From assembly GCA_963737065.1 (NCBI GenBank), contig CAVTRC010000001.1, forward strand, positions 1,248,001 through 1,312,000: DNA of 64,000 nt. Direction: 5' to 3'. Positions 37,815 through 41,299 of this stretch are shown here, one piece after another. Both the position numbers and the translations under genes were made by a program. Within the stretch, counting starts at the first letter, position 1. Each line of letters starts with the position of its first letter. This DNA comes from Candidatus Eremiobacteria bacterium (GTDB lineage: Bacteria; Vulcanimicrobiota; Vulcanimicrobiia; Vulcanimicrobiales; Vulcanimicrobiaceae). The notes under the pieces are model-generated. The model saw only the letters and a list, made by a program, of their open reading frames with translations, did no database searches and was not told the origin of the DNA.

Positions 37815-38235
37815 CGCCCGGCTGCGTCTCGGTGCTGGATGACAACGGCTGGGGCTTTGGCTGACGCACCACGTTACGTTCCTCGGTGACGGCGGCGGCA
37901 AGATCGGGGCGTCAACGCCGCCAGTTGATAAGTTGCAACGCCGCGCTGATGAAATGCGTCTGCCGTTATGAGCCTGAGGCCGCGTGGCAGAATCAGCGTT
38001 GGGCCTTTCGTTGTGAGCGGCGCATTGACGGGACACGCGGTGTGCAAGCGCGAGGAGAGCCACGCACGATGAGGATGCTGATGCGGTCGGGACCGTTCGA
38101 ACACGAAAACGCTCGAGATTCCCAATGTATATTTCATAGTCTCAGGTCGCCAAATGTAGACACTTCTTTTAAGGTGCCTACTGGAGTTGACCCGCTTCCG
38201 TGGAGACTTTCAATCTTACAGAGAAAGGTCTCCAT

Positions 38236-38547
38236 ATGGCAAAGCGCCCCACCTATCCGCCGGAATTCCGGCATAGGATCCTCGAGCTGGTCGGTTCCGG
38301 CCGCAGCGTGAACTCCGTCGCGGTCGAATTTCAAGTTGCTCGACAATCGATCGTGAACTGGCTGAAGCAAGACGACGTTGATACGGGCCGCCGCGACGGC
38401 GGTTTAACAACGGACGAACGCAAAGAACTTGCGGCACTGCGCCGTGAAAATAAGCGCTTAAAACTCGAAGCGGAAATCCTGTCAAAAGCCGCGGCCTGGT
38501 TCGCTCGGGAAACGCACGCGGTTCCGAGCAAATCTTCGGATTCATAA
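38236..38547 (+). CDS. IS3 transposase OrfA (HTH + leucine zipper)
   Basis: 'YPPEFR...SVAVEFQV...NWLKQ...LRRENKRLKLEAEILSKAAAWFA'. Confidence 0.93.
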   Translation: MAKRPTYPPEFRHRILELVGSGRSVNSVAVEFQVARQSIVNWLKQDDVDTGRRDGGLTTDERKELAALRRENKRLKLEAEILSKAAAWFARETHAVPSKSSDS

Positions 38548-38934
38548 AGGCGTACCAGGCCAACTATACGATTACGATGCTGTGTCATGTGCTCGACGTT
38601 TCCCCGAGCGGATACTACGCGTGGTGCAACCGATCGCCGTCGAAGCGCCGCCAAGACGACATCGTTCTCGGCGATCAGATCGATGCGTTCTATCGGAAGT
38701 CGTATGGTATTTACGGCCGTCCGCGCTTGCATGCGGATCTTCGCGAAGCCGGCATTCGGATCTCCGGAAAGCGCCTTGCGCGGTTGATGCGCGAACGCGG
38801 AATTGTCGGCGTTTCTCGGAGGAAATCCACAGTCACGACCATACGCGATCGGGATTCGCGTCCGGCGCCTGATCTCGTTGAGCGCAATTTCCAAGCCGAT
38901 GGGCCTGACCAGCTTTGGGTCGCTGACATTACGT
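38544..38934 (+). pseudogene. IS3 OrfB, 5' part (ends ...QLWVADIT)
   Basis: 'LCHVLDVSPSGYYAW', 'YGRPRLHADL', 'APDLVERNF...PDQLWVADIT'; start uncertain (ATA overlapping the orfA stop, or frameshift fusion). Confidence 0.9.
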
Positions 38935-38948
38935 TGTATCTTGGACCG

Positions 38949-39130
38949 ACGCGGCGAACAACCGTCGCGAGGTGGGGATAGCACGGATATTACGTGAGGC
39001 AGCAACAGCCTGAGATGTAGATGTCGCACCCCACTGCATTTTCAGCGCCGCAGGAGATCGGACGATAGCAAAGACGTTGCTCATCGAGCGAAGAGTCTGG
39101 ATTTACAAGGCTGATCCGCGGGTGGCGCGA
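38949..39130 (+). ncRNA. Predicted IS110 bridge RNA (5' hairpin + target-binding loop + donor-binding loop)
   Basis: Manual pairing gives three stem-loop modules; guides GATATTACGT and GATGTAG match the target, GACGATAGC and TACAAG match the circle junction; ends approximate. Confidence 0.85.
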
Positions 39131-39155
39131 TTTCGATTTGAAATGTGGAGGCGCT

Positions 39156-40139
39156 GTGAAATTCATCGGGATTGATGTCTCTCGTGATAAGCTCGACTGC
39201 GCGGTAGTCGACGACTGTGGAACCGTTATTCAACGATCGCGAGCATTTAAGAATAGCGCTGATGGCGTCGATGCGCTCCTGAAGTGGGTCGGAAAAATCG
39301 CCAGTAAGGGGCACGCGCGGTTTGTCATCGAGGCAACGGCAGCCTATCACGAGATGGCCTCACTGCGCCTTGCGAAGACCGGTGAATTCGTCGCAATCGT
39401 GAACCCATTTCACGTGCGTTCTTTAGCGCGCGGGCTAGCCATGCTCAGTAAGAGTGACGCGATTGATGCGCTCGTCCTTGCGCAATATGGGCGTCTTGCA
39501 AAGCTGCGCCGATGGGTACCGCCAGCTGCGCAGCTTGTTGATATTCAGGCTCTTTTGCTGCGGCTCGATGCGATTGAATCAGACCTCTTGCGTGAGCAGA
39601 ATCGTCGCGAGCAGGCTGCAGCCAGAGAATCCGCGACGCTTGTGATTGGCTCGATTGACGCGAGTATCAAATTCCTAAAGCGTCAGCGGAAAAGCATCGA
39701 ATTCGCGATCAGCAAATCGATTGAAACCGCTCCGGGTATCGCGGATGACGTCGAGCGCTTACGCTCGATCCCCGGCGTGGGCGAAAAGACAGCAAACCGC
39801 ATGGCGACCATGCTGCGTATGCACGACTTTAAGTCGGCGCGTGAAGTGGCCGCCTTCTGCGGCCTCGTTCCGGTCGAGCATAAATCCGGAACGAGCGTCT
39901 ATCGCAAGCCGCGACTCTCGAAGGCCGGCAACCCAAGAATGCGGGCGGCTCTATACATGGTTGCAGTCGTCGCCATGCGGTTGAACCCCGACGTCAAGGC
40001 GCTTTACGATCGACTCGTAGGACGCGGTAAAGCAAAAATGGCGGCTCTCGGTGCGTGCATGCGTAAGATCGTTCAGATATGTTTCGGCGTACTGAAGTCG
40101 GGAAAAACGTACGCCCCGCAGGCTGTTGTTAGAGCTTGA
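39156..40139 (+). CDS. IS110-family DEDD recombinase/transposase (327 aa, intact)
   Basis: RuvC-like DEDD 'IGIDVS', 'VIEAT', 'KSDAIDA'; 'SIPGVG'; 'GLVPVEHKSGTS' serine loop; 'SKAGNPRMRAALY'; GGAGG RBS before GTG. Confidence 0.96.
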   Translation: MKFIGIDVSRDKLDCAVVDDCGTVIQRSRAFKNSADGVDALLKWVGKIASKGHARFVIEATAAYHEMASLRLAKTGEFVAIVNPFHVRSLARGLAMLSKSDAIDALVLAQYGRLAKLRRWVPPAAQLVDIQALLLRLDAIESDLLREQNRREQAAARESATLVIGSIDASIKFLKRQRKSIEFAISKSIETAPGIADDVERLRSIPGVGEKTANRMATMLRMHDFKSAREVAAFCGLVPVEHKSGTSVYRKPRLSKAGNPRMRAALYMVAVVAMRLNPDVKALYDRLVGRGKAKMAALGACMRKIVQICFGVLKSGKTYAPQAVVRA

Positions 40140-40156
40140 CTTCCCAGACGATATCT

Positions 40157-40614
40157 ATATCCCGACCTGGGGTGGATTCGTATACCTCGCAATTGTGCTC
40201 GATGCTTACAGTCGTCGAGTCGTCGGCTGGGCACCTGCTAATCACTTACGCACCGAACTTGTTCTGCAAGCGCTCAACTCAGCAATCTATCGGCGACGGC
40301 CGGAAAACGTTATCCATCACTCGGATCAAGGCTGCCAATACACCTCAATCGCCTTCGGCCTGCGGTGTCGCGAAGCCAAGGTACGCCCGTCGATGGGTTC
40401 AGTCGGTGATGCATACGATAACGCGATGTGCGAGAGTTTCAACGCAACGCTCGAATGCGAACTACTTGCGCGAAGTTCGTTCAAAAGCCAGCGTGAAGCT
40501 GAACAAGCGATCTTCGCGTATATCGAGGGTTTCTACAACCCGCATCGCCGGCATTCCGCAATCGGGTATCTCTCACCGAACAACTTCGAGCGCCGCATGA
40601 GTCATGCCGCTTGA
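40157..40614 (+). pseudogene. IS3 OrfB, 3' part (YIPTW...)
   Basis: 'YLAIVLDAYSRRVVGW', 'HHSDQGCQYTS', 'DNAMCESFNATLECE', 'FYNPHRRHSAIGYLSP'. Confidence 0.93.
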
Positions 40615-40720
40615 TGTCCAAGTCGCATTTCTCCGCGAAAGCGGGTCAACTCCAGTGGGCATCGGGCGGCGTTGTTGGTCAGCAAACCAATTACACCAAC
40701 GAAGGGGCGCTAGTTAAGGG

Positions 40721-41299
40721 ATGTTAGTTCTCGTTTTTCCGTTTATTCTCGCAACGCAACTACTTGCGCAAGCTACTCCAGAACCGTGGGCACATTACGA
40801 ATTGGCAGGAAGCTCCCTTAGGCAATTCGCTGCCAGCTATGACGCAGAAGTGCGCGGCAAGGAATCGCAATTTGCTGGTACAATCGTCCGCATCTCTAAA
40901 CTTGTTGACGGCGGAAGTCAGGTGACATTCGAGCGAAAAACCGGACAGCCAATGGGCTTTCGAGTTACGCCGGATAATAAGGTCGTTGCTGCATCTGCGT
41001 TGCAAGAATCAAATACAGAAGGCGTCCCGTTTGCGGACGCCCGCGCTATGGCGATCACCTACGACGCCTGGAAGGCGGGTCAAGTTAAAATTCCAGAGTC
41101 GGCCGCTGCGTTCAACGCAGATCGGTTCAGCGTCAGCGAACGCGGAATATTCAATTATCCCACGGGCTTGCCCGGATACTACGTAACATTCCAGCCCATC
41201 GGCAACGTCCCAAAAGTGGGGCGGGGGTGTCCTCCAACCCGAAACTATCGAGTCGATCCGAACACGTGGCAGGTGACCGAAGAACCAATTATTTGCTAA
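40721..41299 (+). CDS. Secreted hypothetical protein
   Basis: Signal-peptide-like N-terminus, 192 aa, visibly more AT-rich than core genes, two C-terminal Cys. Confidence 0.7.
   Translation: MLVLVFPFILATQLLAQATPEPWAHYELAGSSLRQFAASYDAEVRGKESQFAGTIVRISKLVDGGSQVTFERKTGQPMGFRVTPDNKVVAASALQESNTEGVPFADARAMAITYDAWKAGQVKIPESAAAFNADRFSVSERGIFNYPTGLPGYYVTFQPIGNVPKVGRGCPPTRNYRVDPNTWQVTEEPIIC

Follow-up and report, generated by a model that had tools for sequence, protein, structure and literature searches.

Unequal core dinucleotides around an IS110-family element in an IS3 transposase gene suggest insertion of a CT-core donor into a GT-core target

An IS110-family element within an IS3 transposase gene

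The DNA analysed here, referred to as the window, is a stretch of 64,000 nucleotides from Candidatus Eremiobacteria bacterium (assembly GCA_963737065.1, contig CAVTRC010000001.1, positions 1,248,001 to 1,312,000 of the forward strand), and all of the features described in it lie on that strand. Within it, an IS110-family element resembling IS621, 1220 bp long without either flanking dinucleotide (38935..40154), splits orfB of an IS3-family element between its threonine and tyrosine codons; the dinucleotide to its left is GT (38933..38934) and the dinucleotide to its right, by direct reading, is CT (40155..40156). We consider it probable (roughly 0.8) that these unequal dinucleotides arose when a donor with a CT core (C8-T9) was inserted into a target with a GT core (G8-T9) at the Thr/Tyr junction of a conserved ...ADIT/Y... 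motif. This reading draws on the anatomy of the locus, the complementarities of the guides, what is conserved among relatives and the empty sites of one relative, which carry GT.

The interrupted IS3-family element extends from 38182 to 40654, boundaries set from its inverted repeats and from comparison of copies. Its left arm (38182..38934) comprises the terminal inverted repeat TGGAGTTGACCCGCTT..., orfA (open reading frame 38200-38547; Pfam HTH_Tnp_1) and the N-terminal part of orfB with an HTH_21 domain; its right arm (40157..40654) begins with the right target ATATC (40157-40161) and carries the remainder of orfB, with Pfam domains rve, rve_3 and rve_2, and the right inverted repeat. The terminal inverted repeats are 16 nt long (TGGAG...CTCCA); a helix-turn-helix domain in orfA, an rve integrase core in orfB and TG...CA inverted repeats, the features of the IS3 family, are all present. 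The left part of orfB ends in ...LWVADIT, with ACG at 38931-38933 followed by T38934, and the right part restarts with T40156-A-T (Tyr) and continues IPTW; across the insert, the host reads ...GAC ATT ACG T, then the element, then (C)T AT ATC CCG. The D of the ADIT/Y block is, we assume, the first D of the DDE triad. The element begins with TGTATCTT at 38935 and closes with ...ACGATAT at 40154. In the left dinucleotide, G occupies the wobble position of the Thr codon ACG and T begins the Tyr codon; positions 38934 and 40156 are both first codon positions, and the orfB frame is restored when the element is removed.

Comparison with other IS3-family elements fixes the extent of the insert. The Thr codon directly adjoins a Tyr or Phe codon in 55 of 57 relatives (ACC in 33, ACG in 15, ACT in 4, ACA in 3); these 57 were drawn from 80 that were returned, by keeping one row per distinct genome with a match starting at query residue 1 and leaving out repeat copies from the same genomes and matches starting at residue 2. 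One of the remaining two has AGC, and the other (L082) has foreign DNA upstream. Because Thr abuts Tyr or Phe in nearly all of these genes, the insert amounts to 1222 nt, with only T common to both junctions. An earlier sequence-only reading of the window had proposed a GT core at 38933-38934, a CT core at 40155-40156 and duplication of T alone, and had placed the variable base at the Thr wobble position (ACG versus ACC), such that either outcome of excision would keep a Thr codon; direct reading and the IS3 relatives uphold the former claim, and the latter holds as well. In L082 (positions 1-1500, from a proteobacterial metagenome-assembled genome, MAG), DNA unrelated to IS3 lies directly upstream of the same Y-I-P-T codons of another IS3-family orfB, and the open reading frame in it resembles, judged by eye, the reverse transcriptase/maturase of a group II intron; the same boundary may thus be in use by another kind of mobile element there.

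Recombinase, bridge RNA and guides

The recombinase gene (39156..40139) has a GTG start, encodes 327 aa and terminates at a TGA stop codon (40137-40139). Its product matches DEDD_Tnp_IS110 (PF01548, 1.3e-22, residues 10-156) and Transposase_20 (PF02371, 1.8e-25, residues 206-290), which is the arrangement of an IS621-like bridge recombinase: a DEDD RuvC-like domain at the N-terminus and, at the C-terminus, a Tnp domain with a catalytic serine. Residues D7, E59, D101, D104 and S244/S247 are invariant in an alignment of five sequences (the window and four relatives), and are equated with D11, E60, D102, D105 and S241 of IS621 by position only. Between the left end and the recombinase gene, the noncoding region 38935..39134 matches a bridge RNA covariance model (R1) with 146 bits and E 4.7e-37, the window sequence being itself among the seven from which the model was built. 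The consensus consists of a 5' stem-loop and two large internal-loop domains, with 46 pairs, 16 of which show compensatory changes; the model has 72 matches in 84 sources, each of them upstream of a recombinase gene. The element therefore carries the two-loop bridge RNA in a long non-coding left end that characterizes the family. No Rfam 15 family was found at E<=1 across 38000-41000. Judged from its sequence, the element is an intact IS621-like bridge-RNA transposon of the IS110 family, and the copy in the window may be active at present.

The guides of this bridge RNA can be assigned by complementarity to the flanks and ends of the element. Positions 1-7 of the left target (LT), ACATTAC (38926..38932), agree at six of seven with guide positions 38987-38993, plus one U.G wobble; the complete left target guide (LTG), AUAUUACGU (38987..38995), in which G38994 reads target position 8, is identical to the left flank ACATTACGT at eight of nine positions, the remaining position being the U.G wobble. 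The right target guide (RTG), GAGAUGUAG (39012..39020), pairs with right-flank positions 9-14 with one G.T wobble; A39019 and G39020 form its core-binding pair, complementary to CT, and its final G would be complementary to a C at position 8. It is followed by the dinucleotide AU (39021..39022), complementary to donor positions 7-6 (T, A), which corresponds to the handshake guide of the published concept (PMC11208158). In the donor loop, the left donor guide (LDG), ACGAUAGC (39062..39069), matches the right end ACGATAT-C at six of seven positions plus C8 (39069); the corresponding left donor (LD) positions 1-7, ACGATAT, form the right end of the element (40148..40154) and read ACGGTAT in relatives. 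The right donor guide (RDG), UUUACAAG (39102..39111), contains AG (39108-39109) complementary to CT, plus the handshake guide GC, and the six nucleotides ..UACAAG (to 39109) pair with CT plus the left end TGTA. All of these guides fall in the covariance-model alignment columns that hold the guides of related elements.

The guides thus show the complementarity to target and donor that is expected of an IS621-like element. The identical CT cores of such elements are not found: the left flank is GT and the right flank CT, with only T9 in common. Likewise, the left target guide encodes G8, and both right guides and the left donor guide encode C8. Direct reading and the alignment substantiate the earlier observation that the left target guide ends in ..ACGT and that the right target and right donor guides end in AG.

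Relatives, empty target sites and a second copy

Protein-guided searches yielded about 80 related loci, to which one more (L253) was added through a degenerate guide-scaffold motif; this motif occurs at 41 loci in genome_contigs, and apart from three that were already known, only L253 is a real bridge RNA. The nearest group consists of L007, L120 (=L006), L121 (=L008) and L253, all from Burkholderiales MAGs, with recombinases 54-59% identical to that of the window in the members with a full gene. All five elements of this clade, that of the window included, lie in an IS3-family orfB at the same D-x-T/Y codon junction, and the four relatives share with the window element the same scaffold and a left-guide position 8 that is G or U, never C.

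The origin of the two dinucleotides can be read most directly at L007. This element, with a recombinase 59% identical to that of the window, occupies the same codon site of a different IS3 and is likewise flanked by GT on the left (...CAC GT/TGTATC) and CT on the right (...GGTAT CT/ACGTC). Its left target guide, ACUUCACGU, equals its left flank, ACTTCACGT, at nine of nine positions and ends in ..ACGU like that of the window, and its right target guide ends in AG. In the genome that harbours it (G061), the IS110 element is present once and the host IS3 six times, at 98-100% identity, and the five uninterrupted copies (98-99% identity) all read ...GACTTCAC GT ACGTCTCG. Since these empty copies carry GT, the target core of L007 was GT before insertion and the CT at its right junction is not derived from the target; the left dinucleotide came from the target and the right dinucleotide from the donor. 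L007 is an event independent of that in the window, with a different IS3, a host assigned to a different phylum and a diverged recombinase, and shows the same asymmetry. We infer that in the window, too, the left GT is target-derived and the right CT is donor-derived. The proposal of the sequence-only reading, that a GT-core target was recombined with a CT-core donor, is accordingly supported in principle by the empty sites of L007, not by the window's own IS3. The genomes of L006 and L008 contain no further copies of their host IS3, and among 400 genomes of the order to which G061 belongs, no recombinase relative exceeds 46% identity.

Across the distinct related RNAs of the wider family, AG stands in the right target guide in 55 of the 55 with coverage of that column and in the right donor guide in 56 of 56; position 8 of the left donor guide is C in 55 of 56; and CT follows the right end in all 31 relatives in which that end was located (for the window itself, the right-end rule chose a false site and the end was read directly instead). 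The left target guide matches its own left flank at a minimum of 7 of 9 positions, i.e. at least seven, in 51 of 58 distinct combinations of flank and guide, and in 45 of these 51 its position 8 is C with a CT flank. It is G with a GT flank in the window and in L007, and U in L121 (CT flank) and L182 (TT flank); the guide of L253 reads ..ACUU with a CT flank. Unlike the window element, L121 and L253 therefore present a U8 wobble opposite a CT target, with CT at both cores. The rows of L120 and L176 were misregistered by the script; read by a structural rule (U9, one nucleotide, then the inner stem), the guide of L120 ends in ..ACGU. L120 differs from the window in that this G8 stands opposite an apparent AT target with an extra T.

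Three further observations concern the guides of this family. At L187:450-475 (=L014), a relative at 68% identity, the left flank matches its own left target guide at only 3 of 9 positions and its first base is A, not T; right flank and right guide do agree, and a rearrangement on the left side seems to have followed the insertion. At position 9, the left donor guide has C in 44, A in 6, G in 5 and U in 1 of 56 RNAs although the donor has T9, and since U is so rare there, the pairing of this guide seems, in this group, to go only through position 8. Position 7 of the same guide is G in 13 of 56, opposite a donor T.

The genome of the window contains a second whole composite of the two elements (C1:65848-68320), identical to the first from window position 38344 to 40233, both dinucleotides included. 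The two IS110 copies are 100% identical, and the composites differ by 15 substitutions in 38292-38343 and at 40234, 40282 and 40437 in the right arm. The second copy is flanked by a 3-bp duplication, AAG (C1:65845-65847 and 68321-68323); the copy in the window has no target duplication (tac at 38179-38181, gtg at 40655-40657), which suggests recombination between IS3 copies or rearrangement of a flank at this locus. Because the flanks differ and the second copy has its own AAG duplication, the two composites represent separate IS3 loci. The genome has no copy of this IS3 besides these two, both occupied by the IS110 element at the same site, and the IS110 element may thereby have inactivated the whole IS3 population of the genome. 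No further site within 1 substitution of the 14-nt target was found elsewhere in the genome. The 15 substitutions lie within 52 nt of orfA (window 38292-38343 versus G000:C1:65958-66009) in IS3 copies that are otherwise almost identical; this patch looks like a mosaic or gene conversion from a third IS3 variant that is gone from the genome.

Proposed insertion of a CT donor into a GT target

The proposed mechanism takes its cleavage positions from IS621 and presupposes that an rG.dG mismatch of the right guides with target position 8 is tolerated. What is said here of IS621 draws on parts of Durrant 2024 (PMC11208160), Hiraizumi 2024 (PMC11208158) and Hiraizumi 2026 (PMC13626964). In IS621, the left target guide pairs with the bottom strand and the right target guide with the top strand, and the top strand is cut after T9 (PMC11208158); the protein does not contact C8 but does contact the guide G via its backbone (PMC11208158). 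The constancy of this G in both right guides across the family is in keeping with that contact. The bottom strand is described as cut between 9* and 10*, with tT11* paired with G53, and a companion paper gives an rG:dT pair at target position 4; since the tT11*:G53 pair is that rG:dT pair at position 4, the numbering converts as i* = 15-i and the bottom cut falls between top-strand positions 5 and 6.

If the window element is cleaved in the same way, target and donor would have their top strands cut after T9 and exchanged, and positions 6-9 would form the staggered region. The left junction would then retain positions 6-9 of the target (..AC GT) and the right junction positions 6-9 of the donor (..AT CT), the difference between target and donor at position 8 being carried along in the same way as the normal differences at positions 6-7. 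The observed outcome, GT on the left and CT on the right, agrees with this prediction from the published cleavage geometry of IS621. Excision by the same rule would put ACG-TAT back into the IS3 gene and leave CT in the circle.

The cost of the heterology would fall on the right guides. A G8 target would present an rG.dG mismatch to the right target guide before the exchange and, with the incoming target strand, to the right donor guide after it. Because the protein backbone of IS621 holds the guide G, the right-guide G of the window element would stay matched to donor C8. Watson-Crick pairs of positions 6-9 with both right guides, counted by hand, number 4 plus a wobble before the exchange and 6 after it for the G8 target, and 5 plus a wobble before and 7 after for a hypothetical C8 target. 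The idea that the G8/C8 heterology serves as an extra handshake base that drives insertion was considered and dropped: the net gain is equal in the two cases and only its split between the loops changes; the heterology takes one stabilizing pair from each side of the reaction and adds no drive.

Alternative explanations

Several points weigh against an insertion of a CT donor into a GT target. IS621 strongly preferred pairing of its guides to both strands of the CT core (PMC11208160), and CT and GT cores were orthogonal in IS621, abolishing the cross-reaction of co-expressed bridge RNAs (bioRxiv 2026.04.29.721476); for these reasons, the mismatch should cost efficiency. The target G8 of the window's own IS3 is reconstructed, as no empty copy occurs in the genomes and contigs searched: its own genome holds only the two interrupted copies; 60 related genomes contain no uninterrupted copy, the best match having 70% identity; an exact 22-mer of the empty site has 0 matches in genome_contigs; and an exact 20-mer has 11 in metagenome_contigs, all of them in other IS3-family members with <=45 nt in common. 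Among the 57 IS3 relatives surveyed (<=83% amino-acid identity), ACC is commoner than ACG. The two copies in the genome may be one insertion that was later duplicated, and on account of this possibility they are counted here as one observation. A single-sequence fold of the window's bridge RNA is no better than those of shuffled sequences (z -0.93), and the structure accordingly rests on covariation and comparison. Finally, the left junction of L120 (L006:130-150) reads ...CACATT/TGTATC, one T more than an ACA-TAT target and the usual left end would give; a true insertion of 1 nt, an error of the assembly or a different cut could account for the extra T.

Three other histories of the dinucleotides were weighed. 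A canonical insertion of a CT donor into a CT target, followed by a C-to-G mutation at 38933, would make the original Thr codon ACC and the asymmetry an accident of decay. ACC is indeed the commonest Thr codon at this site (33/57), the change would be synonymous and, in a gene that was already broken, unconstrained, and the two copies in the window's genome possibly go back to a single event. Under this history, however, guide and flank must both have changed, since the left target guide carries G8 where 45 of 51 related guides have C; the same change is needed again in an unrelated host, given the GT and CT of L007 in a different IS3 with a 59% identical recombinase; the five empty sites of L007 already read GT; and a third relative, L120, also has a ..ACGU guide. 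A mutation after insertion is thus quite improbable. An error of assembly or consensus at one junction base is less credible still, and we give it hardly any weight: repeated mobile DNA is error-prone in assemblies, but the copies at two distant loci show no difference in 1.9 kb, the base in question agrees with the guide RNA, and the independent assembly of another organism repeats the pattern. The identical dinucleotides of the second composite copy make a single-read or local assembly error unlikely in particular.

A different kind of explanation holds that identity at position 8 was never required by IS110 recombinases, such that any member, IS621 included, would accept a GT target if given a matching left guide, and the supposed rule of matching cores reflects how cores were defined and experiments designed. 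The IS621 protein makes no contact to C8 (PMC11208158); 15 of 117 off-target insertions of IS621 lacked a CT core (PMC11208160); a mixed design, with a left target guide for G8 and a right target guide that keeps its G, is not among the IS621 tests described in the parts of these papers drawn on; and published boundary pipelines, which take a repeated sequence as the core and give priority to CT, would leave asymmetric cores hidden. The use of CT and GT cores nevertheless eliminated cross-reaction in IS621 (bioRxiv 2026.04.29.721476), core pairing on both strands was strongly preferred there (PMC11208160), and in 45 of 51 natural relatives the left guide retains C and both sides read CT, which makes heterology rare in nature; we regard this explanation as unlikely. 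Insertion of a CT donor into a GT target, specified by the left guide of this particular lineage, remains the reading that we prefer. To say that the element relaxes a rule of core matching, as the sequence-only reading did, is a comparison with IS621 only, which itself makes some off-target insertions at non-CT sites.

Comparison with characterized systems

The window element resembles IS621 in its DEDD RuvC-like and Tnp domains; in a left-end bridge RNA with 5' stem-loop, target loop and donor loop; in a left target guide identical to the top strand of the left target plus core; in right target and right donor guides that end in AG and are followed by handshake dinucleotides; and in the donor right arm TGTAT and donor core CT. 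As in IS621, a promoter split across the junction may be present. A putative -35 box, TTGACT (40136..40141; TTGACA in relatives, at the same distance from the right end), lies near the right end, and a putative -10 box, TATCTT (38937..38942), lies near the left end, 17 nt after the -35 box once right end, CT and left end are joined; by analogy with IS621 and ISPpu10, the two would form a promoter only across the circle junction. Whereas IS621 has CT on both flanks and a C8 target, the window element is flanked by GT and CT with G at target position 8, and its two target guides disagree on the core, the left encoding G8 and the right the complement of C8. Furthermore, IS621 targets a REP (repetitive extragenic palindromic) element, and the window element targets a protein-coding motif of another insertion sequence. 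A distant blastn search of the element against E. coli genomes gave no match.

Like ISEc21 (Siddiquee 2024, PMC11187229), the window element is an IS110 element with a guide RNA aimed at a conserved catalytic-motif codon block of IS3 transposases; unlike ISEc21, its clade targets the ...ADIT/Y block, about 14 residues into the rve domain, and unequal flanking dinucleotides are not reported for ISEc21 in the text of that paper that was covered. ISPpu10 (bioRxiv 2026.03.19.712850) likewise tolerates non-canonical guide pairs, with a U.G wobble at the left target and a G.G mismatch at the right donor (RD). The mismatch of ISPpu10 lies outside the core and both of its cores are CT, the CT dinucleotide being treated there as a 2-bp duplication (bioRxiv 2026.03.19.712850); in contrast, the G.G mismatch of the window element falls on target core position 8. 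A literature report of naturally unequal target and donor cores was not found in the passages of the publications covered, and the target and donor tables of Durrant 2024 could contain cases.

Implications

The four relatives that share the target of the window element allow a broader, tentative reading, in which position 8 of the core is, within this IS3-targeting clade, an ordinary programmable position that is read only by the left guide and kept as G or U, the bases capable of wobble. Target position 8 of the clade is the third base of a Thr codon and varies among IS3 genes, and the five elements fit such a scheme: G opposite a top-strand G (window, L007), G opposite an apparent top-strand A (L120) and U opposite a top-strand C (L121, L253). 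A set of five related elements is too small to secure the pattern, which we hold to be possible rather than likely. If it is true, one guide would accept either both purine-ending Thr codons (ACG and ACA) or both pyrimidine-ending ones (ACC and ACT), and the guide would mirror the degeneracy of the code.

A current design rule for bridge recombinases holds that target and donor need the same core dinucleotide (bioRxiv 2025.05.14.653916, site-selection methods). That a natural lineage has a guide-encoded target unlike its donor at core position 8 suggests that only T9 may need to be shared, that the left guide by itself can fix target position 8, and that a mismatch opposite the invariant right-guide G can be accommodated. 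If the programmability of position 8 is general, bridge recombinases could be directed to any N-T site by altering one guide base and leaving the CT donor as it is, and relaxed core matching would widen the set of addressable sites. Unequal dinucleotides also serve as a natural marker, in which the left flank derives from the target and the right flank from the element; where the dinucleotides are identical, their origin has been described as undeterminable (ISPpu9 paper, PMC12288879). For the biology of the IS110 family, the ...ADIT/Y block would represent a second catalytic-motif site at which these elements parasitise the transposase genes of IS3 elements.

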